Assembly (NCBI GenBank): GCA_049999805.1 | Contig: JBNGIO010006380.1 | Location: forward strand, 112,769 to 176,768 | DNA from: Folioceros fuciformis | Taxonomy: Eukaryota | Reading direction: 5' to 3' | DNA length: 64,000 nucleotides | Part shown: positions 14,400-55,900 of the stretch, piece by piece | How positions within the stretch are numbered: position 1 is the stretch's first letter | Layout: each line of letters opens with the position of its first letter | Notes under the pieces: generated by a model | What the model was told of the DNA's origin: nothing | Database searches by the model: none | What the model saw: only the letters and a program-made list of their open reading frames with translations | Position numbers and translations under genes: made by a program

Positions 14400-16751
14400 T
14401 TACTGTCGGTCCCCACAAGAGCAGGCGCCGTCTGAAAAATGGTGCACTCTGTGCGCGTCTCTCACTACGATGGTTCGATGCTCTAGGCGGGACATGATCT
14501 TGGTGCTACTGTGGCAGTCGTTGCACATGCGAAGGTTTTTGGTCACCAGGAGCGGGGTGCCATCTGGAGTGTTTAGGAGACCGTACGCCAAAGCCAGCTT
14601 CTCTGCATGGCCACACAGTGCATCTTCCTTCTCCTGCTCGGACACGGCCTTCAGCACCAGCTCTGTCTGAGATACATGGCCTCCCTCCTCCTTCAGCCTC
14701 GTGTGCACACTTTTCAGCTTGGAAGAGATGTCAGGCCTCTCCTCACCTACGGTGAACTCGTGCAGCTTGTCCTTCACCTCGATGCACGCCTTTGCAGGCT
14801 TCTTCGTCGCACCTGCTGACCTTCTTAAGCTCTCTATCCTGTCCACATCCATCCACCTGCCCGCGTTTGCATAGATGTTGGCCAGCAACACGTATGAACT
14901 TGCGTTCTCAGGCTCCAATGAGACGAGTCGATCGAAACATCGCTTACCACGATCGATGTCACCATGGTTTCTGCAGGCACTCAACAACGATCTCCAACCC
15001 ACCACGTGGTCTTTGAATGGCATTGTCTCCAGTATATGTTCTGCCTCGTCCAGACATCCAAACCGCCCGAGAAGATCAACCAGGCAACTGAAGTGATAGT
15101 CAGTAGGGACGATGCCATGGTCATCCACCATAAGTCTGAAGTACCGCTGGCCCTCTTGCACCAGGCCTGCATGACTGCAGGCAGCAAGAAGACTGCTGAA
15201 AGTCGTCCCATTAGGCTCCAAACCTTGCCTACGCATTTCTTCGAAACACTGCATTGCCATCTGAGCATCACAGTGTTCAGCATAGCCATTCAGCATAGCA
15301 CTCCAAGTTACCACATCTCGAGTGGGCAATCTGTCAAAGATTGCACGAGCGTCCTTCATGCTACCGCACTTCGCGTACATGTCCACCAGGCAGCTACCAA
15401 TTAGGACATCGTTGTCCAGCCCCTTTTCTCGTATCAGAGCATGAAGTTGCTTCCCTTGAAGCAAAGCTCCCACCCCTGCACATGCTTGAAGGAGGCATAC
15501 AAAGGTAACCTGATTGGCGACAGTGATGCCCTCGTGTTGCATACTCCTATACAGACAAAGGGCTTCATAACCCTTACCTTGCTGGACATACCCCGCGATC
15601 ATGGCGGTCCAAGTCACAACATCTCTTCTACCCATCGTGTCAAACACTCGCCGAGCATCCTCTAGGCTCCCACATTTTGCATACATGTCAACTAGACAGT
15701 TTCCAACTACCAAATCGGCCTCGAGTCCACTTTCCCTGAGCTGAGCATGAATCTGCTTCCCCTGATGCAACGCTCCGACGCTAGCACATGCTTGAAGGAG
15801 GCAGACAAACGTCACTACATTGGCTGGAGTCATGCCATTCAGTTGCATACTTGCATACAGATCGAGAGCCTCCTGACCCATTCCTTTCCGAGCATATCCC
15901 GCAATCATTGAAGTCCAGGACACCACATCCCTCGTACGCAGTCTGTCAAACACTCTACGGGCATCCACTAAGCTCCCGCATTTCGCATACATGTTCACCA
16001 GGCTGTTGGTGACAAAGCTGTTGGGCCTCACATCGCTGGCCCGAATATCGGCGTGAACCTCCAAACCAGACGCAAGATCCTCTGCACTGGCACACGCTTT
16101 GAGGACTGCAACAAATATGTGGTTGTTGGGCTTCAGACTCGAGCGTCTCATCTGTCGATACAGCCCCACAGCTTCCATGGGCTGTCCATGTCGGGCATGG
16201 GCCAAAATGATGCTAGCCCACAGATGGGCATCTGGTGCAGTCACTTTGCTGAAAACCTGAACCGCTTCCTCCAATTTCCCATGGGCGGCATACATATCGA
16301 CGATGTGTGTGGCCACGAATGCATTTGACTCGAATCCGCTCTCCAGAGCCAGAACATGCACCCGCCTCCCGAGCTCCAGATCCTCGAGTTCCGTGCACTT
16401 CTTCAGCACACGAGAGAATAGAGAGGTGTCAACACGACACTCCTGCTGCACCAGCCGGTCCAAAGCTCCAACAGCCTCGCTGAGCTCTCCATCCTTACAA
16501 AGCCTTCTAGAGCTTCTGGACATAGAATCCCCTCCACCCTTCCTCTTGTTGCGAACCAGACCATCGCTGCCTGCAGTCCTTGAACTGGACGCAGACAGCT
16601 CCAAAGCCGCCAACCCAGGATTGTGCTGAGCATTTACCCAAACCCCGTGGTACAACTTCTGCCCCACCTCAGGCAGGAGGAAGGTTTTGCAACAGTCCAA
16701 GTCATAGGCTCCATCCCTGGACAGCGGGACTGCGCCAAGGGCGAGCGCCAT
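14400..16751 (-). CDS. PLS-class PPR protein (14 motifs) + E1/E2 + DYW:KP deaminase-like domain (ends DRQ); candidate U-to-C editing factor
   Basis: 783-aa ORF with P-L-S triplets. C-terminus KKPAKACIEV...LCGHAEKLALAYGLLNTPDGTPLLVTKNLRMCNDCH...RDAHRVHHFSDGACSCGDRQ. Confidence 0.93.
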   Translation of the reverse strand: MALALGAVPLSRDGAYDLDCCKTFLLPEVGQKLYHGVWVNAQHNPGLAALELSASSSRTAGSDGLVRNKRKGGGDSMSRSSRRLCKDGELSEAVGALDRLVQQECRVDTSLFSRVLKKCTELEDLELGRRVHVLALESGFESNAFVATHIVDMYAAHGKLEEAVQVFSKVTAPDAHLWASIILAHARHGQPMEAVGLYRQMRRSSLKPNNHIFVAVLKACASAEDLASGLEVHADIRASDVRPNSFVTNSLVNMYAKCGSLVDARRVFDRLRTRDVVSWTSMIAGYARKGMGQEALDLYASMQLNGMTPANVVTFVCLLQACASVGALHQGKQIHAQLRESGLEADLVVGNCLVDMYAKCGSLEDARRVFDTMGRRDVVTWTAMIAGYVQQGKGYEALCLYRSMQHEGITVANQVTFVCLLQACAGVGALLQGKQLHALIREKGLDNDVLIGSCLVDMYAKCGSMKDARAIFDRLPTRDVVTWSAMLNGYAEHCDAQMAMQCFEEMRRQGLEPNGTTFSSLLAACSHAGLVQEGQRYFRLMVDDHGIVPTDYHFSCLVDLLGRFGCLDEAEHILETMPFKDHVVGWRSLLSACRNHGDIDRGKRCFDRLVSLEPENASSYVLLANIYANAGRWMDVDRIESLRRSAGATKKPAKACIEVKDKLHEFTVGEERPDISSKLKSVHTRLKEEGGHVSQTELVLKAVSEQEKEDALCGHAEKLALAYGLLNTPDGTPLLVTKNLRMCNDCHSSTKIMSRLEHRTIVVRDAHRVHHFSDGACSCGDRQ

Positions 16752-16929
16752 CCATCGACAAAATATTCCCTACGCGCCTGAAATAGTTGTCCCCAGCCGT
16801 GGAGGAGGACCCTGCCAGTGACACGGGGTAGATCTGAACGACGATATTCTGGGTTCGAAAATCACACTGCTTGGATGTCTGGATGGTTGCGAATCGATGA
16901 GAACGCAGAACTGAGTACAGTACATATTG

Positions 16930-19900
16930 CTAGTGCCAGTCTCTGCACGAACACGACCCGTCCACAAAGCGGTGGACGCGGTGAGTATCTCTAACGATGA
17001 TCTCTCGCTTCTCGATCCTTGACATGATCTTGGTGCCGCTGTGGCAGTCATCGCACATCCGGAGATTCTTGGTGACAAGCAAGGTCGTGCCGTCTGGTGT
17101 GTTGAGCAGGCCGTACGCCAGCGCTAGCTTCTCGGCATGTCCACACAAGGCATCTTCCTTTTTCTCATCGGACAACGGTTTGAGCACCAGGTCTGTGTGC
17201 GGAACATGGCCTCCATCCTCCTTCAACCGCAAGTTCACGCTCCTCAGCTTGGAGGAGATGTCATCCCGCTGTTCTCCCACAACGAACTCCTCCACCTTGT
17301 GATTCACCTCAATCCAAGCCCTGGCAGGCTTCTTGCAAGCTCCGGCAGATTTTCTCAAAGTCTCTATCCTGTCCACATCCTTCCACCGACTATTGTTTGC
17401 ATAGATGTTAGCCATGAGTACGTACGCAGCAGACTGTTCTGGTTCCAGTTTACGGATGTGATCGAAGGACCGCTCTCCCCGCTCGATGTCACCATGGCTT
17501 CTGCAAGCATTCAGCAGAGCTTTCCACCCTGCCGAGTCACTCTGAACCGGCATCGCGTGCAACATGTTTTCTGCCTCGTCTAAACACCCTGACCGGCCAA
17601 GTAGATCCACCATGCAAGTGTAATGGTACACAGTGGGCGAGATGCCATGCTCCTCCGCCATAGCTTTGAAGAACTGCTTACCCTCGTCTACCAGACCCGC
17701 ATGACTGCATGCCACCAGAAGGCATATGAAAGTTGTCTCATCGGGCTCCACACCCTGCCCGAGCATCTCTTCGAAGCACAGGATGGCAGATCGACTGTCG
17801 TTATGCTGGCCCAAGCCATTTAGCAGAGCATTCCATGTCACCACGTTCTTTGTGGGCAATCTGTCAAACACCCTCCTGGCATCCATTAAGCACCCACATT
17901 TTCCGTACATGTCGACCAGGCTATTGGCCACAGCCACATCCGCTTCCAATCCTCGTTGCTGTATCTCTAGATGAAGTTGCTTCCCTTGTGGCAAAGCTCC
18001 GATGCTGGCACACGCTTTCAAGAGACAAACAAACGTGACGCTATCCGCGGGAATAATGGAAGCCTGTTGCATACTTTCGTAAAGAGCAAGAGCGTCTTGA
18101 CCGAGCCCATGCTGGGCGTACCCTGCTAGCATGGCATTCCATGTGACCACATCTTTAGAGGGTAGTCGATCAAACACTTTGCGGGCATCATCTAGGCTGC
18201 CACACTTCGCGTACATGTCCACCAGACAGTTGCCGACAACCAGATCACCATCTAAGTTCTGTTCTTGAATCTGGTGGTGCATTTTCTTGCCTTGATGTAA
18301 GGCTCCAAGAGAGGCACATGCGCTAAGCAGGCACGTAAATGTAACACTGTCGGGTGGAGTTATTCCCTCATTTTTCATGCTAGCATACACTGCAAGAGCT
18401 TCTTGATAGAGACCATTCCGTGCATACCCGGCTATGATTGAATTCCATAACGCCACATCTTTCGTAGGAACTCGATCAAAAACTCGGCGAGCATCCTCTA
18501 AGCTGCCACATTTTGCGTACATGTCAACAAGGCAGTTGGCAAGCGATGGATCAGCTTCTAGTTGTCTTTTCTGGATATCTGAATGGAGTTCCTTTCCCTC
18601 TTGCAGTGCTCCTATGCTTGCACATGCTTTCAGCAGTGTGGCAAACGTAGTGATGTTGGCAGAAGACAAGTCCTGCTGACGAAGGCCGGAGTAAAGAGAC
18701 AGAGCTTCCTGTCCCTGTCCACGCTGGGCATAAGCTGTGATCATGGCAGTTAATGTCACTATATCCCTCGTAGGCAATATGTCAAACACTCTTCTGGCAT
18801 CCTCCAAGCTGCCGCATTTGGCGTACATGTCCACCAGGCAGTTCCCCACAACCACATCAGCTTCCAGTCCGCTTTCCTGAACCTGAGAGTGCAGCTGCAT
18901 TCCCTGATGAAGAGAACCGACACTTGCGCACGCATTAAGCAGGCACACAAAGGTAACTCTATCAGCGGGAGTTACGCCCTCCTGTAGCATGGATTGATAC
19001 AGATTAAGGGCATCTTGACCAAGACCAGCTTGAGCATATGCTGCAATCATGGCATTCCATGTCACCACATTCTTCACAGGCAGTCTGTCAAACACAATGC
19101 GAGCCTCTCCTAAGCTTCCCAACTTGGCATACATGTTGACCAGGCAGCTACCAACCACCACATCAGCTTCGAAACCTTGTTCTCGAATCTGTAAATGCAG
19201 ATTCTTCCCCTCATTCAGGGCCCCAACGCTAACACAAGCCTTCAGCAGGCTTACAAATGTTACTGGATCGGCCAGAGTGAGCCCTTCTGCTTGCTTATTA
19301 GCATAAAGAGTGAGAGCTTCGCGTCCAAGCCCATGCTCCACATATCCTCCAATCATGGCATTCCATGTCACTGCATCTTTGGTCGGGAGTCTTTCAAACA
19401 GGCTTCTAGCATCTGCTAGCCTGGCACACTTGGCATACATATTCACCAAGCAGTTGCCCACCACCACATCGCGCTCAAGCTGTCTTTCCTGAATCTGAGT
19501 ATGCAGCTGTTGACCTTCCTGGAGTGCTCCAATGCTTGCGCAGGCCTTCAAAAGTGACACAAAGGTCACGTGATCTGCTGGAAACATGCCTTCCTGCTGC
19601 ATCTTTGCGTTAAGAGAGAGGGCCTCTTGACTGCGCCCATGCTGTGCATATCCGGTTATCATGGCCGTCCATGTCACCATGTCCCTTGTTGGTAACATGT
19701 CAAATACTCTGCGAGCATCCTCTAGGCTCCCACATTTTGCATACATGTCCACTAAGCTGCTGCCAATAAGTATATCCGATTCTAATCCCCTTTCCTGTAT
19801 CTGCATATGAAGCTGCTCACCCTCACAAGCTGCTTGAATACTGGCACATGCTTTCAGGAGGCACACAAACGTGACGCGATCTGCTGGTATGCCCTCCTGC

Positions 19901-21418
19901 TGCATGTTCCGATACAATGCCAGAGCTTCTTGACCAAACCCATGCTGCACATATCCTGCGATCATGGCATTCCATGTCACGAAGTTCTTTGCAGGCAACC
20001 TGTCAAACAGTCTGCGGGCATCCTCGAGGCTGCCGCATTTGGAATACATGTCTACCAGACAGCTGCTTACTGTCAAATCAGTTTCCAGTCCTCGTTGCCG
20101 AATTCGGGAATGCAGGTCCTTGCCCTCACGCAGTGCCCCAATACTTGCACACGCCTTCAGCACGGCCAGAAACGTGACACAATTAGCTTCAGTGATCCCC
20201 TCCTGCTCCATACACGAATAGAGAGAAAGAGCTTCTTGACCCAGGCCATGCTTGGCATACCCAGTGATCATCGTAGTCCACGACACCACATCTTTTGTCT
20301 GCAAATTGTCAAAGACCCTGCGAGCATCTTGTAAGCTCCCACATTTGGCATACATGTCCATCAAACAATTGGCGACAAAGATGTTGGGCTGAACTCCACT
20401 TTCCAGGACATCAGCATGGACCAGCTTGCCCGCCGCCAAATCTGCCGCAGCAGCACAGGCTTTGAGTGCAGCGACAAAGACGTGATCATTCGGCTTCACC
20501 TTGGACTTCCGCATTTGCCCATAAAGCGTGAGGGCCTGCAAAGGCTGTCCCTGTTCCGCATGTGCCCCTATGATAGAAGCCCACACGAACGTTCCCGGCG
20601 CAGCAAGAACATCACACACCTGCAACGCTTCCTGCAGCATCCCGTGCGAAGCGTACATGCGGATGATGTGATTGCCCAAGAATGCGTCCGACTCATACCC
20701 ACTCTTCGAAATGAGGGCATGAACATGTCTACCGGCAGCCAGGTCCCTCTGCGAAATGCACCCCTTGAGTACATGATAGAAGAGATAGGCGGGCACATTG
20801 AATCCTCTTTGCAACAAAACTTCCAGAAGGTCCACAGCGTCCCTGAGCTGCCCCTCCTCACATAACCTGCTCCACGCCTCCACGTCGAAAGCATCTTCCA
20901 ACCTTCCACACCTGCAACACCCACCCCCAGTGTGTCAAAACCGTCCTCACCACCCAATTGTCGGCCACATTCCCCAGTAGTAGCAAGTCGACAAATCTCC
21001 TACCTCGGCACACCCCCAATCTGGAAAGCGACTCCCCGCTCCCCAAACCTTCCATCCCAACGACGCTGTGGGTTCTCGGTTGCGCTGTGCACAAAGTCCA
21101 GATTAACGCGGTTGATTCTCTGCAATGTCGCAACGATTGAATGCCCTAACGAAATCCACCCATTCCGGCTTCACTGACCACGCCCAAATCGCTGGCACGG
21201 ATTACCTCGCGCGGCTTGCACTCCCACTCCTTCACCTCCTTCTCCCAGCATGCCTCCCGACCTCCAACAGCCCTGGCTGCAGCCTTCCGTTGCTCCGAGA
21301 CGCCACTCAGTGACGACACCCGCCTGCACCACTTCTCCAAAGTCCCATGGGAGCTGGGATTCCTCTGCAGCAGGCCAAGCCCAGATCCCACGACCCGACG
21401 CCCCTCGCCCTGCCTCAT
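16930..21418 (-). CDS. PLS-class PPR protein (32 motifs) + E1/E2 + DYW:KP domain (ends DWH), about 1436 aa, two 5' introns; candidate U-to-C editing factor
   Basis: The 1323-aa ORF lacks an upstream in-frame ATG. Exons 21418-21206, 21119-21004 and 20911-16930, joined by GT-AG introns of 86 and 92 nt, restore the frame. C-terminus KKPARAWIEV...HAEKLA...CDDCH...CSCRDWH. Confidence 0.92.
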
Positions 21419-21592
21419 CCCCGTCTCCACGCCACACTCTCTGCATCACAAAACTACAATGTACTGTACGTAGAGTCAACCGCCCATCGAACTCCCATAA
21501 CCTAAATGCCACTTTGCTTGGGCTCACAAAATCACGTTCGTGGGCGCCCACAAAACCCGCGTCTCCGTCCGCGGGCAGACGCACCGGCAGCG

Positions 21593-22843
21593 ATGGAGGC
21601 GGCGCAGGAGCAGATCCAGGCGCTGTACGCCGTCCGAGATACGTTTTTCCCAAGCGACCCGGCGGTGAAGAAAGCTCGAGTGTCGGAGCAAATGGCGGCC
21701 GTGCTGGCGGTGCTGGACGTGGTCCCGCCCGAGAGCCGGCGTCAGCCAGGTCGACGCGCGGAATGGGAGTACCTTCGAGGGAAGGCGCTGGACGCCGCGG
21801 CCGACTACAGCAAGGAGGCCGAGGAGCATCTGGCGAAGGCCGTGAAGCTGGAGCCGGGGCTGGTGGACGCCTGGTGCTGCCTGGGGAACTGCTTCTGGAA
21901 AAAGAACGATCTGGAGGCAGCCAAGAACTGCTTCACACAGGCCCTGGCGGCTGGTCCCCACGTGCGCGCTCTGCAGCAGCTGTCCATGTTGGAGAGACGG
22001 ATGGCGAAGGGCGCGCCCGGTGAGGCAGAGGCGGTGGAGGAGAGCATCCGGCTGGCCAAACAGGCGCTGGCTCTGGATGTGACGGACGGGCCTTCCTGGT
22101 ACACTCTGGGGAATGCCTACCTGACCAGTTTCTTTGTGGGTGGCGCGGGCGCTTGGGACCTCCCCAAGCTCCGCCTCGCCCTGAAGGCGTACCAAAACGC
22201 GGAGAAGCATGAGGCCGGGAACTCCAACCCGGACCTGCACTTCAACAGCGCCATCGTCCACCAGTACCTTGAGGATTACGAGCGCGCGCTGCGGGCATTC
22301 CAGTGCGCCGGCGCCCGGGACCCCGGGCTACAGGCGGATCAGCAGGCGGAGAAGTTGTTGCGGCTTCTGGCCCGGCTCTCCGACCTGGCCGGGAGCAAAG
22401 GGAGGATGAAGCCCAAGCGGCTGTCGGCCGTAATGAGCTCCGGGGGCGGGCTGGGCGACGCTGCCGTCCCCGCCTCGCACCGCCCGGTTGGCCTAGACGC
22501 ACTCCAGCAAGGCGTCAATGCTGGTGTAGCTGTGGCCTGCAAGGTGCTGCAATCCGTGGGGCACGACCAGCCGCTGCCGCTTTTCTTCCTGCTGGCAGAC
22601 TCGTCGGAGTCGTGCGTCGTCCTGTCCGTGTACGCTCTGCGGCCCGGCGTGATTAAAGACGCTCAGACTGTGACTCTGCTGGATCCCAATTTTCGGACCG
22701 TCTCCGTCGCCTGGCAGAATTATGAACTCCGCTACCGAGCTGTGCGGGTCGACCATCCTAAGCAAATTCTGCTAAATGGCCGCTCTCCTTCCGTGCAGGA
22801 TACAGTCCGCTCCACCATCCATGCCCATCATGTGCCTCCATGA
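21593..22843 (+). CDS. TTC5: Tetratricopeptide repeat protein 5 (TTC5/Strap) homolog, single exon
   Basis: LYAVRDTFFP; YLRGKALDAAADYSKEAEEHLAKAVKLEPGLVDAWCCLGNCFWKK; LDVTDGPSWYTLGNAYLTSFF; NPDLHFN; C-terminal OB-fold-like end YRAVRVDHPKQILLNG. Confidence 0.9.
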   Translation: MEAAQEQIQALYAVRDTFFPSDPAVKKARVSEQMAAVLAVLDVVPPESRRQPGRRAEWEYLRGKALDAAADYSKEAEEHLAKAVKLEPGLVDAWCCLGNCFWKKNDLEAAKNCFTQALAAGPHVRALQQLSMLERRMAKGAPGEAEAVEESIRLAKQALALDVTDGPSWYTLGNAYLTSFFVGGAGAWDLPKLRLALKAYQNAEKHEAGNSNPDLHFNSAIVHQYLEDYERALRAFQCAGARDPGLQADQQAEKLLRLLARLSDLAGSKGRMKPKRLSAVMSSGGGLGDAAVPASHRPVGLDALQQGVNAGVAVACKVLQSVGHDQPLPLFFLLADSSESCVVLSVYALRPGVIKDAQTVTLLDPNFRTVSVAWQNYELRYRAVRVDHPKQILLNGRSPSVQDTVRSTIHAHHVPP

Positions 22844-32914: not shown

Positions 32915-35383
32915 ACCAAGAAATGTATACGCGGCCGCCTCCCCTCGTGCGTCTGCTCCTAGACAGGTCTGTTTCCGAATGTTATCCATATCCTGTTCTG
33001 TTAATTGGTGTGCAAGGAGCGCACATAGTAATGGCACTGAGCGTCGAGTCACCCACTCTACTCTATTACGAGATTCCTTAGCAATGGCAATCTGCCGCCT
33101 CTCTTCTGTCTCGAAGCGGTCACCGTCCTGGTTTCTCAATAACACAGACGCCCATGCTGTGAGAGACAGTTGGCAGTCGTCCTGGTTAACCCGCCCAGTA
33201 GGATACAGTCGGCAACGTTGTCCTCGGAAAACGAGCAACCGTCTCCTGCGCGTGGCTTCCACGATCTCCGTACATGCGCCTGGTGTGTGGCTGTGTACAA
33301 AATGGCGAATTCCGCATGACCTCTCCGCCTCAATGGCGGGACTCTAGAGATTATGGTGCTCTGTTCATCGTACAGTCACGGGATAATGTGGTCTTGATCC
33401 TTCCCTCCTATGACCGCCAAGTGGAGGGAGGAGAACGTTGGGAGGACAGACTGTAGAAAGTATGAACTTTTCTCTAGCTTACAACAATATATTATTATTA
33501 TTATATTTACTTTATCTCTTTTTTTAATGTATGAATAGATCTCAATGATTCCAAGTTCATAATCACGTACCAGATTAAAGCGCGAAATAGTTTAGGGATT
33601 AGTAACACGAAATAAAGCTGTTTCAGAATGTTAATTAAAAATATTCAGATGTTATACCTAAAAATCCACATGCATACATACTGGACGAGGAATGCGCAGT
33701 AATTGGTGTACGTGCGAGTGATACGAGATGTTGGATGAATGCAGGGGGTGATGTTCAAAATTCAAAGCGCAGTGTCCCAGTTTGCGCCGGCTCCCGCCAG
33801 GGTCCCGGGTCCCTGTCCGGCAACCCTCGGTTGGTTTGTCCGTTGCTCAATAAAATCGGTGTCCCTATTTCCGCGTGCAGTAGTGATACTGGCATGTGTG
33901 CAGGTGCCTGCCTGTTACAGGATCGAGAGCCAGATCTGGTACTAGGTGTCGGCGCAATGGCTCCTGTGTTGTACTGACTTCCCGCCTTCCGGCACCAGCA
34001 ACAGCACCAGCAAGGGGGGCCTGGCACATTTGCAGTGCAACATTTTCCCTCCGGATCGCGCGGCCGCTGCCACCGGGCCCCTCTCTCATCACTATCCATG
34101 CGGCCAGCTCCATCTCCCAGGCCGTCTGCACCTCCTGCTGGGCCCCATCGCAGTTACAGCTATCTACTCTACTACCGTCGAGCTCTGCAGACCCGCGCAT
34201 CAGCCTCCCTCGCGGCCTGCCTTGACAGCCTGCTGCATCTCCTTCTCCTGTCCCGATTTAGCTCTGCCTTCACGGATTGGCACTGCGGGTGCGAGTGCGG
34301 GTGTGGCGTGGGAGTTCCCCCGAGACGCTCTGGATAGTAGGCCCCTCCAGCTCCTCCCTCCGGGGATGATTCTTGCTGCGTGATTACAACTTCACTTGAA
34401 CATCCCAGCCTCCTGATTTGGTTCCCACCGAAGCAGTGTCCGGGCTGGAGGATCGTATCGCTTTCTGCCCGCCTACAGGAGTGGTACAAAAGCGCTACAG
34501 GAGCGCTACATCGGCTGTACAGCAGGCCCGCAAGAGCTCTACAGGAGCTCTAAACAAAGGCGCTGCCGGAGCTGCCGGGATTTTAGGCCGGCTCAAGCCG
34601 GGCCCTCCCTTTGCTCTCTGCGCCCGGGCGCTTGTTAATTCCCTTGTTACTCTCTGATCTGCCGGACATCGGGTCTGGAACCTTGTTGCCTCCTGGAGTC
34701 GTCAAGGCCCCCTTGTTGTCCAGACGCCAATGCGCAGAACGGAAAGTCATGCGGACTTCATTTCCATAGCCCAGAGCTTGGAAGGTTCGAGCAGCTGCAT
34801 CAAGGCCGTGTCTTCCTGGGATCGCCATGAGGCTGGAGCACAGAGATTGGCGCCCTTGTCCCCGTGACCAGGCCGAATTCGGGCACTCTTGCTTCCCCTG
34901 TCAATGCAATCCATTCTCCTCGTCAGATCAAGTGCTGTGAGCTTCGGAGGCTGAGTCAGGAGTCTGCCGGCGAATTGGTGACACTTCGAAATCAGGTACT
35001 TGCTCGTGTACACGTCGAGAGGCTGTCTCTTTGCCTGCTCCTTCCCTCGAAGATCTGGTGTGATGTCGGCAGCCTTGGGTGCTCGTTTTCTCCTGCAGTT
35101 GTAATCGGTGATCACTGAAACGTATGTCCGACTTCCTCTTGGCGTTGTGCAGGCAGGGGCGGCGGGATGAGTTTTTCATTCGGGCGATTGCGGTCTCCAT
35201 TTGGCCATCTGTATCAGCCGCACAATGCTAGGAAGGGACAAAATCCTCTCGACGCAATGCATTTATCTTCCATCCGTAAGTATCCGTGCTCCTTTGAGGG
35301 ACTTTGTTCTCGGCACTCGTGTGGAAGCTGTCATGGGGCGCCGTGCTGAACTGAACATATAGGCCTGTTTGTGTCTCTCAGAA

Positions 35384-37703
35384 ATGCAGGATTCCTCTGA
35401 ACTGGTGCCTATATCGTCTGTGGTGGGCACTCTCATCAGTTTGTATAACCAAGTGGATGCGCTGATAGACGAGGCCAAGATCAAGGACCAAGTAGCCTGG
35501 GAGCTGCAAACAGACCTTCGCTTTCTCCCCTCCGTTGTAGCGGAGGTGATTCCCGCCTTGAATACCGGGAACAGCCACTTCGACAGAAACTTCTTCCGAG
35601 TGGTACAGCTCATGTGCAAAGGTCTAGAGGAGGCAAGGGGAGCCCTGGATGAGTATATATTGGCCAATATCCACATCCTGCAGCTACGGACTCTAAGTCG
35701 TCGTCTTGCGGATGCAAGGAACCGCATTAGGCATGCGGTCTCTCTGTACAATACATACTGCAACACCCATCAGATGACCAAACCTGGGACAGGACCAGAG
35801 ACCAACAGCTCCATTGAAGTACAGGAACCCAGAAGGATAAGCAACGTGTGTTCCACCGACCCGCTTCTCAAGTTGAAGGAGTCGCTCCAGGAGCTGGAAA
35901 ATGCTGCGTCTCAGCCATGTCCCAGGAAGATACTCAAGCTTGTGGCCAGGCTGAGAACCAGTAAGTACAACTTGGGCTCCTCCCTGTACAAGTCCTTCAC
36001 CATGAACGAGCTGGAGCACTTTTGCAGAGTGGGCGGGCTAGAGGCTCTGGTGCATCTCCTCAGTTGTCCTTCTCACACGGTGCAGAAGCAGACCATGGCC
36101 AACCTGCAGAGCCTGGCCTCCGACCTGGAGACTCGAGAGAAGATATGCTCCACAGCAGGGGCGCTGGAGCAACTGGGCTCCCTCATTATCTCTGCTACTG
36201 GAGACATACAGTACGGAGCTGTTGCCATCGTGAGGACCCTGCTCAAGAACAACGACAGGATAGATGTCAGGAGATTTGCTCTTCCCGGAATCATCCCCAA
36301 GCTGATGCAGCTCTTGGCGATCAGCTCTCCCAGAGTGCAGGCAAACGCCGTTGGGGTTCTGTGGGAGCTCTGTGTGGTGCCACAGCATAGGTTGAGCATC
36401 GCAGGCTTTCCAGGGGCTGCTGGAATATTCGTCAAGCTCTTCAGCTCTCCAGCTCCTGCAGTGCAATTTTGTGCAGCAGCTGTTTTACAAAACCTTTGCA
36501 GAGAGAAATCATTCCGAGGAAACGTCCTGGCTATTCCCTCACCCCCGGAGAAGCTTCTCGCACTCCTTGGGGCGGACGTACCGCACATTCCATCTTCTCG
36601 GAATCAGGTCTAAATTCAAAATCTCTCACGTCGATGCTGCAGCAATCCAGACTTTACGCTCGATCAACTCTCCTGACTAACGCTGAGAACTGTGCATCTT
36701 CCTGTAGGTGACAAGGAAACGTGAAGACCTTGCTTCGGCAGGAGTGATCGGATGGGCGGTGGCAAGCCTTGAGGCTGAGACTCACGCAGAGCAAATGAAG
36801 GGCCTGGATGTTTTGCAGAGGTTTCCATCTCCTCTCATGCAGATTGCTGTTTCAGAGGGCGCCGTGTTGAGGCTGGTCGGACTTCTTTTCTCAGAATCTA
36901 CTGTCATCCAGGAAAAGGCTGCCATAGCTCTATGGAGACTATCCATTCCTGATGAGAACGAAGTGACGATTGCAGCCCAGACGTCTTCCATCTCTAGGCT
37001 GGTTGCCATGCTCGACTCTCCGGTTCTCAGCGTTCAAGAGAGTGCCGTCAAGGTTCTTGAAAGCCTCTCCTTCAATGTGGACAACAGGAAGCGGATTGGA
37101 GATGAGGAAGGTGCCATACAGAAGCTCGTTGATCTGCTCTTTCTCGACTCTCTTGGTGCCCAAGCAAATGCAGCAAGTGCCCTGTGGAACATCTCCAACA
37201 CCACCACTAAGAACAAACTCAGAATTGGCGCTGCGCCGGGAGCTCTTCAGAGACTGGTGGACCTTCTTGCTTCGGATTGCACTCTGGTCCAAGAAAAGGC
37301 AGCTGGGGCTCTTATGAACCTTTCCTACAATGGGTCCAATCGCAGGTGTATCTCCAGCGTACCCAATGTCTTCCTCAGATTGGTCGACCTGCTTGAGTCC
37401 ACGTCCACCTTGGTCCACCAGAACGCTGCAGGTGCCTTGTACAACTTGTCAGTGACTAGTGATAATGGTCAAGCTATCGCAAACACCAAGGGAGCTCTAC
37501 TCAATCTCACTCTCCTGCTTAAGAGCATGTCCACTATTGTTCAGGAGTACGCAGCTGGCGCTCTTGCCAATCTGGCATTCAGCGAAGAAACCAAGGAATG
37601 GATCAGGCAAGTAGGGGCTATTCCTTTGTTGAAGCAGCTCAAGCAATCAAGCTCTCAAGCCGTTAAGACGCAAGCCAAGAGGGCTCTAGACAACTGTTCA
37701 TGA
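35384..37703 (+). CDS. Armadillo-repeat protein with N-terminal helical-bundle domain (2 exons; intron 36608-36707)
   Basis: Repeated ARM motifs (VQANAVGVLWEL, IQEKAAIALWRLS, AQANAASALWNIS, VQEKAAGALMNLS, VQEYAAGALANLA). A phase-0 GT-AG intron joins the two ORFs. No U-box motif seen. Confidence 0.88.
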
Positions 37704-45724: not shown

Positions 45725-46945
45725 TTCCACTTATATTACAACTGAATGGTAAGGTAAGGAGAGATATTTTCTGGAGGAGATCAAGTATACAGCCATCGAA
45801 ATAAAAAATACTCACAAACCCAAGCCGCCACGCATCTACCCATTTCTTTACATAGACTAGATCGAAGGAAAGAAATTAAAAAAAAAACAATTATAGGAAA
45901 TGCTATCCGCATGATAGCGAGGGAGGAAGCCGAGTTCAGCAATGAGTGGTGGCGAGTTTTGACGCTGCATTTGGGCCGAAGGGCACGAAGCTAAATCTCT
46001 GTTGACTATTGTAACACGCTGTGTTAGAGAGCATGCGTGTGTTGGCCGGCCGGCCGGCCGCTCCCAACAGCTTAATGCACGGATTAGCGCTGGTTGGAGA
46101 TAAGTACAGTAACCGGCACTGGATGTCGATAATTGAAATTGAGCATTGTGAAGGGACCGAAAGCATGGGCATGGGTGTGCCCAGCCAAACAAAAGGCGCA
46201 AACAGCAAGAATTATTAGTGTCCGGAAGAGCCAGGCCAGCCCGGGGGGCTGGACATGGCCGAGCTTGCGCTCGCAGTTGCAGGCTGGAGCTCGACGGGCC
46301 CTCATCCGGGCCTCACCAATCCCAGGGTCACGTGAGCTGCTAGTGCTTGCCACGGCGTGGGGATTGAGTCGGGCTGTTGTGGCAACCGGGCCGGGCGGAG
46401 GCTCGCGTGGGAGTGCGCTCTGGAATTTGAAATTTTCCCGGGAGCGATCGGGGGCTCGCTGGCTTCCACCGCAAGGGGAATTCTCGCAGCGTGTACGCAT
46501 GCTTCGGNNNNNNNNNNNNNNNNNNNNNNNNNNNNNNNNNNNNNNNNNNNNNNNNNNNNNNNNNNNNNNNNNNNNNNNNNNNNNNNNNNNNNNNNNNNNN
46601 NNNNNNNAGGGGAATTCTCGCAGCGTGTACGCATGCTTCGCGGGGGAGGGAGGGTGCCACGGAGCGGGGACCTGTTGGGTTGTTTATCAATTTCGTATCA
46701 CGGGGCTGGGAGGAATTTTCGTTCCGGGAGGGGGAGTCGGAGCTCCGAGCTCCGACGCGGATCTAGCCCTTGTTGGAGTGCTTGTGGTTTGATGAGGTTG
46801 ATCCCTTCTTGATCTGCGCGTTGCCCGGTGTCCAGGGGCTGGGTTTGGTGCATGCGGGCCTGAATTTGGCCGCTGGGAACTGGAGAGTGGCGGGTGCGGG
46901 TTGTGCGGGAGGAGGAGGGCTCGGAGCGGAGTTTGTGTGCCGGGA

Positions 46946-49900
46946 ATGGAGGGATCGGAGGTGGACGCTGGGGACAGGGGTTTAGGCTTTGCGGAGGATT
47001 TTGGTCAGAAGGTGGACCTGACTCAGAGAATTCGGGAGGTTCTCACGAACTATCCAGAGGGGACGACAATTCTGAAAGAACTGATTCAGAATGCGGACGA
47101 TGCAGGAGCCACCCGGGTGTGCTTCTGTATCGATCGCAGACAACACGCAGCTGAAACCCTCTACCATGCACCGTTGGCAGAATGGCAGGGCCCGGCATTG
47201 CTGGCTTTCAATAATTCCCAATTTTCTGAAGAGGATTTTGAGAGTATCTCCAGAATCGGAGACAGCAAGAAGCGGGGGCAGGCCTGGAAGACAGGGCGTT
47301 TCGGGTGAGATTCATTGGCTGTTGAGGTTGGCCGTGGGCGCGATTGTGTGTCAGGTCGTGTCGTGTGGCAATCGGGTGGAGTGTGAGGAGTCTTTTTGCT
47401 CCTGTGTTCACAAGTTTGGTTCTCTTGTTTTACAGGATTGGCTTCAACTCTGTGTATCATCTGTCCGACTTGCCATCTTTCGTTAGCGGCAAACATGTGG
47501 TGCTTTTTGATCCACACTGCAAGTTTTTGCCAAGAGTGAACAGTGCGAATCCAGGAAAGCGCATCGACTTTGTCAGCACTGGTGCTTTGCGGCTGTACCG
47601 TGATCAGTTTGAGCCTTACTGTGCGTTTGGATGTGACATGGAGAAGCCGTACCAGGGAACACTCTTTCGTTTCCCTTTGAGAACAGTGCGGCAGGCAGCT
47701 GTTAGCCGTCTGTCCCGACAGTCGTATTCTGAAGATGATATGACGCTCTTGCTTCATGAACTCTACACTGAAGCCACATCGGCTTTGCTCTTCTTAAAGA
47801 ATGTTGAGACAATTGACATTTTCGACTGGAAAGTCGGTGCTGACAGCCCCACCAAAGTGTACTCGTGCAGGGTAAAATCGCCAACGGATGAGCTTCGCTG
47901 GCACAGACAAGCATTTTCGAGGTTGGCAAGGGGAACGCCTTCAGTGGCCTCGTCAAATATCCATGACATCTTTAAGATTGAGTTTGTCAGGGAAGTTTGT
48001 GCTCGAGATGCACGAGGGCAAGAGGAGGCTGAGGTCTTCCTACTTTCTCAGTGCATGGGTGGACCAGCGAGCAGAATCTCGGTGATGGCTACGAATGCCG
48101 CCAAGGAATACGACATTCACCTAGTACCTTGGGCTTCTATCGCAGCAAAAATCTCGGGAAAGGAGGAGGGGGTGGGTTGGCAGATGCTTCTTTTGTTTTT
48201 GAAAGGGTAAGACACACTTGGTACACATCTCAAAGACTAATGCTCACTCCTGCCTTCTCGTGTCCAGGACCTTGCTTCCAGCCGTATGGAAGGTCGAGCG
48301 TTTTGCTTTCTCCCTCTGCCTGTTAAAACAGGTCTACCTGTCCATGTCAATGGCTACTTTGAACTCTCGTCTAATCGCCGCGATATCTGGTATGGAGGTG
48401 ACATGGACAGGGGAGGTAAACTGAGATCCGATTGGAATCAATGTCTTCTGGAGGATGTAATGGCTTCAGGGTATGCAAAGCTCATCCTGGAAGCTACCAG
48501 ACTCGTTGGGTCGTCGAAGCTGTATGAGGCCTTGTGGCCATGTGGTACTTTTATCGAACCCTGGCAAGGAATGGTCAGGAGTTTCTTTAAACAGGCCGCT
48601 AAGCTTCCTGTGTTGCATTCTTCTGCTCAGGGTGGTAAATGGATCACTCCATTACAAAGTTTGTTTCATGATGAGCAGTTTGTTGATCCCGACGGCCTCG
48701 CGGAAGCGGTCGTGGCAGAAGACTTGCTCCTTGTGCGTTATCCAGATTCAATGCTGAGGATGTTGTTTACTTACTGTGTGCCTAACCCACACATGGTTCT
48801 CCCTAGTGCTATTCGTGCACAGCTGAGCAGGCCTGGCAAACATGGAGGCCTGGTGAACAGGAAGAATGCTCTGGTCCTGTTGGAATATTGTCTTGCGGAC
48901 GTGATTGATGATGAAGCTGGGGACCTTCTGGCCGGCCTCCCCCTAATACCCCTTGCGAATGGGAGGCTTGGTGTGTTTGGGAAAAAAGCCAGCAAAAGTC
49001 TTGTATTTGTTTGCACAGAGTTGGAGTATAGGTTGCTTGCACGCCTACCAGAGAAAGCCTTAGATCAAGGTATTCCAAATAGGCTTCTACAGCGGCTTGA
49101 TAGCATTGCAAAGGTTGCAAGCACAAACCTGAGGCAGCTTAGTGATGTGGAGCTGGCTCAAGTTCTGTGCTACCTCATGCCAGCAGAGTGGAAGGATCAG
49201 GAAGAAGTGGAGTGGAAACCTGAGTTGGTGGATAACCACCCTACCCAGGAATGGCTTATACTTCTTTGGCGATATTTGAAGCTGTGCTGCAAGGATTTGT
49301 CTGTTTTCAAGGAGTGGCCTCTGCTGCCAACAACGGACAATTTTCTATGCAGGCCCACATCCATGTCGAAGGTAGTGAGAGGTGGGGTGTGTAGTGCTAA
49401 TATAGAAAGCCTTTTGAGAAAGCTGGGATGTCGCATCTTGAGATCTGATTTTCCTCTAGAACATGCACAGCTGGCACACTGTGTGCATGATGCCAGTGGG
49501 CCTGGTATCTTAGATGCAATAACCTCAGCTGCACTCAATCAGGTGCCACGTCTTCAAACAATGTTTGAAGCTGTAACAGGTCTAGAGAGGCGCGAGCTGC
49601 GGGAGTACCTCTATCAACGAAAATGGTACTCAGGGGATCAGATGAATGAGGCCCGCCTTCGAATATTTCGAGCACTGCCAATTTTTGAAGCCTACGATGA
49701 GGTCAACCCTGTCGTCAAAGTATTTGTGGACTTGAGTGGTCCTAAGAGATTTTTGGCGCCCTCTGATATGGAGGAAGCACTTTTGGGCACAGAGTTTCTC
49801 TACACTGCATCTGACAGAGAAGTGGAAGTGCTCACTGGACCTTTGGGTATTAGGAAACTTGGAAGAGCTGCCTTTTACAAGTGGAGGGTGGTTGGTCGTG

Positions 49901-52900
49901 TGAGCAAACTTGCTCCTGACCTTCGTAACCGGATGATGCTGGCGGTTTTGAGGGAGCTGCCACAGCTTTGCGTTAACGATCCTACTATGAAGGAGATGCT
50001 CAAACAGTTGCCATTTGTACCTTCAGCGAGTGGGGAGCTAAGGGCTCCCAAGTCGCTCTATGATCCTCGGAACGGCGAGCTTCTCACTCTACTAAATAAT
50101 CCAGACTTTTTCCCAGCTGACGAGTTTTCATCTCCTGATGTACTGGACATGTTGCAGGGTCTAGGCCTCAAAACTGCTGTTGTACCTGAGACAGTACTTC
50201 AAAGTGCTAGGCAAGTAGAATCTCTTTTAGCTGCACAACCTGAAGTTGCTTGTTCTCAGGGCCAGGCCTTGCTCTCGTACTTGGAGTTGAATTCAAGCAA
50301 GTGGTTACCTCAATCAGCGGAGGATGCTAACAGGAGTATTGGTCGGATGTTCGTAAAGGTTTCCACAATGTTTCAGCCCCAAGAGCATGGGACGGATGCC
50401 ACCCTTAGTAGGTTCTGGAACGAGCTCATAACTATCTGTTGGTGTCCTGTGTTGATGCTCCCACCCCATCCACATCTGCCCTGGCCTTCTGTAGGTAGCC
50501 CTGTAGCTCCTCCAAAGCTTGTCCGATTACAGTCAGATATATGGCTTGCTTCAGCGAGTATGCGCATTTTGGATGGCGAATGTCGATCAGCAGGGTTGGC
50601 GATGAGGCTCGGTTGGGCTAGTCGACCAGGTGGTAGCGTATTGGCTGCCCAACTCCTGGAACTAGGTAAAAACCATGTCCTGATTGAAGACAGGGGGTTA
50701 GGCCAGGCTTTGGCAACAGCTGTACCAAGAATATACACCATTTTGAATGAAATGCTTGGAACCGAGGAAATGGAGATTGTCAAAGCTGTTCTGGAAGGAA
50801 GCAGGTGGGTCTGGGTTGGTGATGGTTTTGCAAACGTGCAGGAGGTGGCTTTCAGCGGGCCACTTCACCTTGCACCCTACTTGAGAGTTATTCCGGCTGA
50901 TCTTGCTGTGTTTAAGGAGCTGTTGCTCGAGCTTGGTGTGAGGGAAACTCTGACTGCAACTGAATTCGCCCTTGTACTCATGAAAATGGCAAAAGATTGT
51001 GATGGTTCTCCTCTCAATTCCCAACAATTGGGTGCTGCAATCTGGCTTGTCCAGCACTTAGCTGATCTACACTTCAGCGGGCAAGGAGTTACCATCTTTG
51101 TGCCTGATGCCAGCTCGGTTCTTATCACTGCTTCAGATCTTGTGTATAATGATGCACCTTGGTTACCACATTCGGCGAACATGCCCAATGCCATGGAAGC
51201 ACCATTGGCCGGATCGCCACTGACTTCAAGAAGTACAAAATTTGTGCATCCTAAGATTTCCAATGATGTGGCAGAAAGGCTTGGGGTGCGCTCTCTCCGT
51301 CGACTGATGTTAGCAGAGAGCTCCGATTCAGTCGATTTGGGTTTGCATGATGCTGCAGAAGCATTCGGTCAGCATGAAGCTCTGACCACCAGGCTGAAAC
51401 ACATAGTTGAGATGTACGCTGATGGTCCAGGAATCTTGTGTGAACTAGTTCAGAATGCAGATGATGCTGGCGCCTCAGAGGTCAGCTTTCTTCTAGATAA
51501 GTCACAATATGGAAAGTCATCTGTCTTGTCTCCAGGAATGGCTGAATGGCAGGGGGCGGCATTGTATTGTTACAATAATTCAGTCTTCACACCCCGAGAT
51601 CTCTATGCAATTTCACGCATTGGACAGGACAGTAAGATTGAGAAGCCATCAGCTATTGGTAGGTTTGGGCTTGGGTTCAATGCAGTATACCACTTTACAG
51701 ACATACCAGGGTTTGTCTCTGGCGGCAATATAGTTATGTTTGATCCTCATGCTTCCAATCTTCCGGGCATCACATCTTCTCATCCTGGTTTGAAGATCAA
51801 TTTCGTGGGGAGGGGTTTGCTTGAGCAGTTTCCTGACCAGTTCCAACCTTACTTGCTCTTTGGCTGTGATTTACAAAAGTCATTTCCAGGCACGTTATTC
51901 CGATTTCCTCTGCGTACAGCTGTAACAGCTGCCAGCAGTGAGATCAAGCAGGAGGCTTACAAGCCTGAGGATGTGGTCTCTCTATTCCAGTCCTTCCGGA
52001 CAAGTGCGGCTGAAGCTCTACTTTTCCTTCGAAATGTCGCTAATGTTGCTGTCTACGTGCGGGAGGAGACAAGCCAGGAAATGAGACTTCTTTATAGAAT
52101 ACATAGGCCATTTCCAGAGTCACAGTCTCAGCGTCCTCGGTCACCTGGTCCAGTTTTCGAATTTGTTAGAGGGGATCCGGCAAATCCAATTGACAAGGAG
52201 CAGTTTTACAGGAGGCTTTCTCGGACACCCGAGAGCCAGCTACCCTGGCAATGTACAACAGTGAAGATATGTATCAGGGAGCAAGACTTGGAGAAGACTG
52301 AGTTATGGCTTATTAGTAACGCTATTGGTGGTGGCCGCGCCAGGGAGCAAGCTGTTGCAGCTGAAAACCGAGCTCGTGGATTTGTTCCATGGGCTGGTGT
52401 GGCATCTCGAATCCTAGACAATGCTGAAGAACCAGATCACGCCAACAGAGATGTCCAGGATGGTGGGAAGTCGATGGGTGTGCTAGAAGGTCGGGCGTTT
52501 TGTTTTTTGCCTTTACCTGTTAAAACAGGCTTGCCAGTTCACGTGAATGGGTATTTTGAGCTCTCATCCAATCGTAGAGACATCTGGTATGGAGATGATA
52601 TGGCGGGTGGTGGGAAGCTCCGATCTGCATGGAATTGCTGTTTGTTGGAAGATGTTGCGGCCCCTGCATATGCTAGGATGCTAGCAGAAGCTGCCCGTGT
52701 GCTTGGACCGAGTGATGGTTTTTTCTCACTTTGGCCAACAGCAACAGTCGCTGAGCCTTGGGCGTCTGTTGTGAGGCAGCTGTACACCGCTGTTGTGGAA
52801 CTCGATCTGGCTGTTCTGCACATTGCTGCAGGCAAAGGGAAGTGGGTTTCAGCCAGGAAGGCTGTGTTTCCTGACATTAATTTTCCGGAGGCTGAGGAGC

Positions 52901-55900
52901 TTGGGAAGGCTTTGGCAGACGCAGGGCTGGCATTGATTAGTGCGCCCTCTGTGGTGGTGCAGAGATTCAGAGACCACTGCCCAACTCTTAGACACCTTTC
53001 TCCACACCTACTGCGCAAGTCATTAGCGGCAAGTAAACGAATTTTAGGGCCCGTGAGGGTAGCAGTCCTGGCTCTAAAATACTGCCTAAGTGATGTTGCC
53101 GACTTAGATGTTGGAGAGAAGCTTCAAGGATTGTATCTTCTTCCTCTTGCCACAGGAGTCCTTGGCATCCTTATGAAGGCTGGATTTGGAGAGCGATTTC
53201 TTGTGTGCAATGAAGTGGAGTTTAACTTATTGAAAGATAAGGCTCGTTTTATGCTTATCGATCGTGAAATTGAGGCAGATGTGCTGTCAAGGTTGCACAA
53301 CATAGCGAAAGCTGGACAAACAAATTTGTCTTGTTTAACGTGCCCTGTCTTGTTAGAGCTCCTACACAGGCTGATCCCTGCAGACTGGCGTGGGAAAAAT
53401 GTGGTCACCTGGACACCAGAGCAGGGTGGGCACCCTGCTGTGGCATGGGTGGAGTTGCTCTGGAAGTACCTGGCATCATCTTGCGAGGACTTAATGGTTC
53501 TATCAGAGTGGCCCCTTCTGCCTACTTCTGATGGGCAGTTACTGAGAGTATCAAAGAATTCCAAGATTTTGCGAGATGATGGGTGGAGTGAAAATATGGT
53601 TGGACTTTTGCAAAAGGCACATTGTTTTCTGCTCAGGCCAGACATTTATATAAGTCATCCTTCCTTGGCAGAATATATTCATGATGCATCAGCAGTCGGG
53701 GTTCTCGATGCTTTGCTTGTAGCAGCTGGCGACCGATTGCAAAACATCCCACACTTGTTGAAATCTGCCTCGGATGGCGAGCTGCGGGAGCTTCGCAGTT
53801 TTCTGTGCCAATCAAAATGGTTTTCAGGAGGTCACATGGATGCACTGAGAACAAAGATTCTCAGGTCTTTACCAGTCTTTGAGTGTTATGGTTCAAATGC
53901 TGGTCGCCACTTTGTTGATCTGCCAGAATCAACACGATGGCTACCTCCAGATGGGCTGGAGGATGGCATTTTTGGAGAGAGTTTCATTCGTGTTGAATCA
54001 GACAGGGAAGCAGAGGTATTGACAAAGTTTCTTGGAGTAAGGAAACTTACAAGACTCCAATTTTACCAGAATCATATGTTTTTGAACATATTACGGATTG
54101 CTACAGATGTCCGTTCTCGTGCAATGTTACAAGTTCTTGACGATCTTCCCTCACTACGTATGGAGGATCCATCCATTGTGTCTCTGCTAAGTCAGCTGCC
54201 TTTTGTTCCAACTTCTGGTGGTGCCATTGAGGCTCCTGAACGGTGAGCTTGCCATTTGGTTGTCAAGTTAGCATTTTGAACTCTTTAAAGCGAATGTTTG
54301 CTGGTTGGAACTTTTGAATGTTTGCTCAAGGTCGTAGACTGCATTGCTGTTGTCGTCATTCCTATAGTTATTGAAAGCATGTTGCATGATACCGGCTCCT
54401 TCAACTCCTTTACAAAGTAACAGGTTGCTGTAGGCTGGATCTAATGGGAAATCTAGGATACTGTTGTGGAGGTTCTGTATGCTGGCCACTTCTGTAGACT
54501 TGACTCTCTGTCTCATTTAACATGCGCTCCGTGCAGATTCTGGGCACGGTGTTAATTAGCTGTTGGTTGTTATGCAGACTGTATGATCCTCGCGTCTCGG
54601 AACTGCAGACATTACTGAATAAGCAGGCATTTTTTCCTTCGGATGAATTCGGGACTGACTCTGTGCTTGATGTTCTGGTAACATTGGGTTTAAGACGGTC
54701 TTTAGGGCGGAAGGGGCTGTTAGACAGTGCAAGGTCAGTGGCAATGATTAGTAGCTCAGATCAGCAAGAAGCTCAAGGAAGAGCCAGGGCTTTACTGGCT
54801 CATCTAGACTATCTGGAGGGTGCGATTCAAAACTGTGACGCAGTAACGACCCCTGCTGAGACGTTTTTGGCTGAAAGTCAGGACTTGCTGGGGTATAAAA
54901 AACCTGATACGGAAGTAAATCTGGAAAGAGCATACTCAAAAGCATCCGTTGATTCAGAGAAGAGCTTCGAAAGCTTAGTGCAGCTCGATGCAGAGGATTC
55001 TGAGAGACAGTTCTGGCAGCAACTTGTTAACATTGACTGGTGCCCAGTTTATCTTGAGCCTCCAGTTTCTGGACTTCCATGGCCGTCACAGAGACTTGCT
55101 ACCGTTGCTGCTCCAAAGGTTGTCCGGCCTAAGGCTCAGATGTGGCTTGTCTCTGCTACGATGCGCATTTTGGATGGGGACTGTCATTCCTTGGCCCTTG
55201 CATCCAAGCTTGGCTGGACATTACGTCCAAATGTTGCTGTACTTGCTGAGCAACTTATGCAACTGTCAAAGAATCATTTCCACCTAAGCAGGACCGAAGG
55301 CAGGTTGCCACCTCAACCTGTTGTCGACCAGATCCAAGAAGTAAATGCCAAGCTCTCTCAGGAGGTGCCAACGATATATAAGTTTCTGCAAGAGCTTGTG
55401 GACTCAAGTGACTTGCTAATTTTACAGCCAATGCTTGAAGGTGTTCGATGGATCTGGGTTGGGGACAGCTTTGTGTCAGCCAAGGAATTGGCCTTTGACT
55501 CTCCAGCACACTTCCATCCATATTTACATATAGTTCCTTCTGAAATTGTGGAGTTCAAGGACCTTCTGAGTAAGCTGGGTGTGCGTGAAACGTTCGAGGC
55601 GTCTGATTATGCACAAGTTGTTATACGCATAGGAGAAGACTGCAGTGGTCGTAGCCTTTCTAGTGAACAGCTTACATTTGTTGTCCGAGTTCTTGAGGCT
55701 CTTACAGAGGTTTTGCCTACCCAGGCCGTAATATCAGGCAGAAGCTCTGTTGGGCCAATTCTTATGCCCGACGCATCTAGTGTTTTACTTCCAGCCAAAG
55801 ATCTAGTGTACAATGATGCCCCTTGGCTGGCTAAGAGTGTTTCCGGACTAGCAGGCATGAGACGTCTTGTTCATCCAGAGATCAGCAATGAGCTAGCTGA

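Follow-up and report, generated by a model that had tools for sequence, protein, structure and literature searches.

We analysed a window of 64,000 nt from Folioceros fuciformis (GenBank assembly GCA_049999805.1, contig JBNGIO010006380.1, forward-strand positions 112,769 to 176,768; all positions below are counted within this window). Its minus strand carries a nuclear gene for a PLS-class pentatricopeptide repeat (PPR) protein, followed closely by a shorter paralogue. The long gene, most likely that of a hornwort, probably encodes a site-specific organellar RNA editing factor with the architecture PLS-E1-E2-DYW:KP and the U-to-C direction of editing. The open reading frame listing of the window gave a single frame of 1323 codons (16930..20901), whose protein matched the Pfam families PPR (E 4e-155) and PPR_2 (E 1.6e-153), far above chance. 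Features of the gene and its surroundings are collected in the table.

Exon boundaries were sought by placing contigs of four public runs on window positions 16700-21700. In two contigs (organism B: run X4, record 23; organism D: run X8, record 30) position 20910 was joined to 21003; with the joint shifted by one base, the skipped stretch becomes 20912-21003, and a 'ttgcag' acceptor directly precedes exon 2. A further contig (run X2, record 14) matched as far as 20909 and continued for 85 further letters, compatible with the same splice junction. The intron was retained in record 8 (run X1, organism A, a run guessed to be DNA), which was unbroken through 20920-21639. Position 20911, at which the original prediction had ended its feature, turns out to be a real exon boundary, the first exon base after the acceptor, because the organism B and D contigs skip the 92 nt beyond it. 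We take these joints, which were observed directly, as good evidence for the intron and not as proof of expression, since the kinds of run (DNA or RNA) were guesses, none being recorded as RNA, and contig placement gives no expression level, transcript ends or strand. Both the close spacing of the genes and an intron of 92 nt are in keeping with hornwort genomes. Farther into the gene, contigs were of less use: short-read assemblies fragment it into pieces of 250-2260 nt, and over 17700-20400, at 90% likeness, S-motif segments drew hundreds of paralogue contigs, whose word depths added up to thousands and which produced many spurious 'joints' from one repeat to another.

Table. Features of the PPR gene, its paralogue and their neighbours in the window.
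Feature	Position	Strand	Basis or remark
PPR gene exon 2, from split codon AG/G through stop codon 16930-16932	16930..20911	-	open frame, contig joints and sequence
Intron, 92 nt, GTAGGAGA...TGTTGCAG	20912..21003	-	contig joints; GT..AG ends confirmed
Exon 1 / 5' region	21004..21440	-	organism B contig contiguous to 21440 (record 23, piece 21003-21440); last in-frame stop 21173
PLS array, 33 PPR motifs, residues 3-1122	17536..20895	-	motif walk; Pfam PPR families
Motifs 6-33, residues 174-1122, 19 canonical pairs for target reading	17536..20382	-	motif walk and code of PMC10482289
E1 and E2 motifs, residues 1123-1189	17335..17535	-	motif walk; Pfam E_motif residues 1136-1198, E 1.2e-17
DYW:KP deaminase domain, residues 1190-1323	16933..17334	-	Pfam DYW_deaminase residues 1231-1322, E 1.9e-34; alignment to solved DYW:PG domains
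Tandem paralogue, 783 residues, PLS-E1-E2-DYW:KP, ends GDRQ	14400..16751	-	60% identity over 675 residues
Divergent TTC5-like gene	21506..22843	+	TPR repeats; TTC5 OB-fold domain, E 2.3e-27
Two adjacent open frames with armadillo repeats (ARM_PUB-like)	35369..37703	+	probably exons of one ARM-repeat gene
Assembly gap (Ns)	46508..46607		
Run of very long open frames (288, 1986, 539 and 1177 residues)	47344..60507	+	sacsin domains in 47344-48210 (E 5e-42) and 48286-54246 (E 2.5e-79)

A motif walk along the protein, with lengths of 35/36 for P, 35 for L and 31 for S motifs, resolved the array into ten P-L-S triplets (the first P degenerate) followed by P2-L2-S2 (35, 36 and 32 residues), free of gaps throughout. 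This alternation of P, L and S motifs closing in P2-L2-S2 is the length pattern of the PLS class. From motif 6 on, the fifth and last residues of the S and P motifs, read directly from the protein, are ND,TN; SN,ND; SD,TD; ND,ND; SN,ND; ND,TN; ND,ND; ND,ND; NN,ND (P2); and TD (S2). All 19 pairs are exactly those of the original prediction. It had also described an unbroken array of 32 motifs; the array is indeed gapless, but the count is 33, a difference of one motif. Motifs 1-4 had been omitted from its code reading, correctly, as their pairs (VP, YD, NG and AN) are non-canonical.

The array is old and diverged, since triplets 3-10 are only 54-66% identical to one another as protein and 61-70% as DNA. 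No tandem DNA repeat was detected within it by a tandem-repeat test and triplet comparison. A recent internal duplication of triplets was ruled out on these grounds, the protein identities and the lack of a tandem repeat.

The array is followed by E1 and E2 motifs and then by a DYW-family deaminase domain with HxE...CxxC, the composition of an editing factor. Landmarks of the domain, seen directly in the protein, are KP at 1191-1192, H1255-A-E1257, K1278, C1283..C1286 and the terminal triplet DWH. With the KP lysine as residue 1, the domain is 133 residues long, with HAE at 65-67, the lysine at 88 (within LLVTKNLRM) and CDDC at 93-96. It is homologous to the solved DYW:PG deaminase domains 9kfx, 7w86 and 7o4e (E 3.8e-43, 1.2e-33 and 5.9e-30, respectively). 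In the alignment KKPARAWIEV faces kkePGcSWIEV of 9kfx, so that KP takes the place of PG; HAE replaces the HSE found in all three PG domains; and a 4-residue gap faces their 'kshp'/'shpe', indicating loss of the xHP segment, in a domain that also has the variable type of C-terminal triplet. The traits given as defining DYW:KP are a KP box, HAE or HCE, a length of 132-133 residues without xHP, and a variable C-terminal triplet; such domains are reported to be confined to hornworts, lycophytes and ferns and to be linked to U-to-C editing (PMC11845758; PMC9478123). U-to-C editing by designer KP proteins requires Lys88 (PMC11845758). Judged by sequence, then, our domain is the KP variant, the type linked to U-to-C editing, which made the 'edited U' of the original prediction a reasonable call. 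It appears closest to the hornwort "DRH" subgroup, with DWH as its terminal triplet.

Contigs from organisms B and D showed conservation of the gene. Of their 369 differences from the window, 40 were listed, a partial sample with most positions within the E1/E2/DYW part; third codon positions account for 30 of these 40, and 30 leave the amino acid unchanged. This mostly synonymous pattern, a direct observation, fits purifying selection, and the PPR gene is kept in these relatives. More distantly, the nearest relatives listed in searches of the protein collection (Logan-derived) are 52-64% identical and end in GDRH, GGRP, GDRP and similar triplets. The best identity among the matches listed was 57% for the whole protein and 64% for the C-terminal 456 residues; annotated fern, lycophyte and conifer proteins among them were more distant, at 33-55%.

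The tandem paralogue has its own normal ATG and a ∼100-residue N-terminal extension. Its last nine pairs, aligned to the motifs of the long protein, are TD AN ND TN ND TN SD SN SH. Because this code differs from that of the long protein, the paralogue should serve another site.

The published PPR code reads T or S with N as A, T or S with D as G, N with D as U, N with S as C and N with N as Y; it applies to P and S motifs alone and places S2 opposite position -4 (PMC10482289). The original prediction had used this code and register exactly. Applied to our motif table, the code gives 5'-UAnAUnGGnUUnAUnUAnUUnUUnYUnGnnn[U]-3' (positions -31 to 0) as the predicted target, the same string as had been proposed. 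Designer KP proteins disfavour purines at -1 (PMC11845758), and a pyrimidine is probably present at that position of the predicted target. As far as the protein code goes, the target prediction appears sound in method.

How nearly unique such a site would be was estimated from assumed organelle sizes and base compositions, requiring U at position 0 and reading ND strictly as U only. A full match (19/19) is expected by chance about 1.6e-5 times in plastome-like and about 3.7e-6 times in mitogenome-like sequence. Expected chance sites number 0.22 and 0.07, respectively, at ≥16/19 matches, 2.2 and 0.75 at ≥15/19, and 16 and 6 at ≥14/19. When ND was allowed to accept C too, about one chance site was expected at ≥17 matches. 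The target had been called close to unique; this holds for sites with at least 16/19 matches and fails below (0.75–2.2 expected at ≥15), so the phrase suits only a near-perfect site, because the chance expectation climbs steeply below 16/19. For a candidate taken from a list of mapped U-to-C sites, significance would be reached at a far lower score: at the estimated per-site rate, 1000 such sites should give ∼0.15 chance hits with ≥14/19 matches.

We scanned metagenome contigs for the exact code-derived pattern with Y at position 0. The 39 loci found were mostly AT-rich, and several were duplicate copies of one sequence. An open frame of ≥80 amino acids overlapped 27 of the 39. Pfam was run on 19 of the 27 frames; eight were dropped as having the same match sequence and frame length as another (L011, L020, L023, L025, L027, L032, L033 and L038), and the 12 loci with shorter frames were left out. 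Ten of the 19 frames belonged to non-organellar families (helicase, P-type ATPase, retroelement reverse transcriptase/integrase, BacA, CAP, FAD-binding, cNMP-binding, Mu portal, GCV_T and TonB plug) and the other nine had no Pfam family. None of these 19 distinct frames belonged to an organellar gene family. We rejected all 39 matches as the target; they are taken as chance matches, the families found being non-organellar.

The 5' end of the long gene is unusual. Upstream of the splice the PPR frame runs for 59 codons to the stop at 21173 with no ATG, and the first in-frame ATG of the spliced frame is codon 82 (ATG at 20658), which lies within motif 3. Between that stop and motif 1 there is neither an in-frame ATG nor a recognisable presequence. 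The frame of an ATG at 21055 is offset by +1, and short frames begin at several other upstream ATGs. Three other arrangements were tried and ruled out: a start at ATG 21055, which is out of frame after the observed splice; a start at ATG 20969 with a 39-nt intron, since this ATG lies inside the 92-nt intron; and a donor at ∼21206 with an acceptor at ∼21121, whose phases misfit and across which the organism B contig runs unbroken. Relative to the window, the organism B and D contigs are gapless over 21003-21203 and 21003-21440. An assembly indel is therefore not supported, and the layout is shared and old. Initiation at a non-AUG codon, a further exon that escaped detection, or impairment of the gene at its 5' end could explain the ATG-less stretch 20658-21173 (minus strand).

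In the mechanism that we infer, which concerns RNA binding, the targeted organelle, the direction of editing and the identity of the site, the 33-motif array would align with a single-stranded organellar transcript at one nucleotide per motif, with the fifth and last residues of each P and S motif reading the base. S2, at the end of the array, would stand opposite position -4. The DYW:KP domain would then act on the pyrimidine at position 0, changing U to C, with its active-site lysine (Lys88) needed for the reaction. An edit at a second codon position would put the L motifs on wobble positions; this idea, raised in the original prediction, has already been published, L motifs being described as facing third codon positions when the edit is at the second (PMC11983096).

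Several points weigh against a U-to-C editing factor. The missing in-frame start is the single feature that this reading leaves unexplained, and the PPR gene may be impaired at its 5' end. The two homologue searches of the protein collection returned no orthologue among the matches listed (best identity 64%). The code was common to none of the 31 KP-type homologues compared, the best sharing 7/19 and 6/10 positions. That the runs with the spliced form are RNA is a guess. The cis-element is a prediction read from the protein code, and according to PMC10482289 S2 only exceptionally pairs with position -4 as the code demands, while motifs near the N-terminus contribute little as a rule. As of PMC11845758 (early 2025), natural KP proteins had not been assayed and were without demonstrated activity, and the designer protein KP6 edits C to U as well as U to C.

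This last point bears on the direction of editing. The protein could be a site-specific editor that is C-to-U or bidirectional, in which case the genome would carry C at position 0. The direction of KP6 is switched by small substitutions (PMC11845758), and the zinc-binding HxE...CxxC site is intact here. We consider this rather unlikely, because the protein has every KP hallmark associated with U-to-C editing, Lys88 and HAE among them, and KP domains are reported only from plant groups that have U-to-C editing (PMC11845758; PMC9478123). About as unlikely, if a shade less so, is that the protein binds organellar RNA while its simple code does not point to one site: it might serve several sites or a divergent one, or have a non-editing role such as stabilisation or help to another factor. 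One factor has two native targets and more than 100 off-targets, and context effects, L-motif effects and the many extra candidates that code-based predictions generally yield are described in the same study (PMC10482289); the steep climb of the chance expectation below 16/19 matches points the same way. Yet 19 consecutive P and S motifs are canonical here, more information than most characterised factors offer, and the catalytic residues are complete.

The remaining alternative returns to the missing start. If the gene were disabled or decaying at its 5' end, with no usable start, it would make no organelle-targeted protein and its target would be a fossil. The long ATG-less stretch would be expected of such a gene, as would the out-of-frame ATG at 21055 with several upstream ATGs before it, and the tandem paralogue, with its normal ATG and long N-terminal extension, makes a contrast. 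Decay is nonetheless quite improbable: the 1323-codon frame is intact, the differences from organisms B and D are mostly synonymous (30/40 listed), and contigs from two organisms lack the intron, which suggests processed transcripts. The gapless contigs of the same two organisms, moreover, indicate a shared and old layout and not a recent lesion or an assembly indel. We prefer, with moderate confidence, a site-specific U-to-C editing factor. Two more unusual readings were considered, which we hold possible but doubtful: that the 19-position code may match a single mapped U-to-C site, making a clean natural factor-site pair, and that a conserved, spliced gene is translated from a non-AUG codon.

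Neighbouring genes in the window were also noted. The divergent TTC5-like gene begins ∼500 bp from PPR exon 1, and the spliced organism B contig, which reaches 21440, ends near its start. Farther along, the very long open frames on the plus strand may all be parts of one giant sacsin-like gene that short introns interrupt; those of 539 and 1177 residues had no Pfam match.

Proteins of this type are known from hornworts, where KP proteins have been described in DRH and GRP variants and match U-to-C sites by the PPR code (PMC9478123, citing Gerke 2020). Our protein resembles the hornwort DRH-variant KP proteins of that paper in its PLS array, E1, E2, KP box, HAE, lack of xHP, length of ∼133 residues and non-DYW triplet. 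The tandem neighbour ends in DRQ and several database relatives in DRH, another likeness to this variant, whereas the terminal triplet of the long protein is DWH. With the designer proteins KP1-KP6 (PMC9478123; PMC11845758) it shares the KP-type C-terminal module including Lys88. Those, however, were built synthetically from consensus sequences, with three PLS triplets directed to the Arabidopsis rpoA site, whereas this one is natural and has ten triplets plus P2-L2-S2. The DYW:PG C-to-U factors (PPR56, PMC10482289; 9kfx, 7w86, 7o4e) are alike in architecture, in the homologous deaminase and in code and register; they differ in having PG for KP, HSE for HAE, the four xHP residues that are deleted here, DYW for DWH and, presumably, the opposite direction of editing.

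We regard the protein as an ordinary new member of a known family, one with a long and cleanly readable code. No experimentally assigned natural U-to-C factor in Anthoceros appeared in the titles and abstract openings from our literature search. Gerke 2020 and Gutmann 2020 reportedly catalogue proteins of this kind together with predicted sites, and the present family may already be in their supplements. Because more than 1400 PPR proteins are reported per hornwort (PMC10030945) and code matching at the family level has been described already, the gene adds one more candidate and no new principle. Still, U-to-C is given as the only direction of base editing without a characterised natural enzyme, and the only KP proteins with demonstrated U-to-C activity are consensus-designed ones (PMC11845758; PMC9478123). 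A natural KP factor with a readable code is thus a practical candidate for site pairing and testing. If the pairing is true, factor and site could be used in existing E. coli or human-cell assays, which might give the first demonstration of U-to-C editing by a natural DYW:KP protein.

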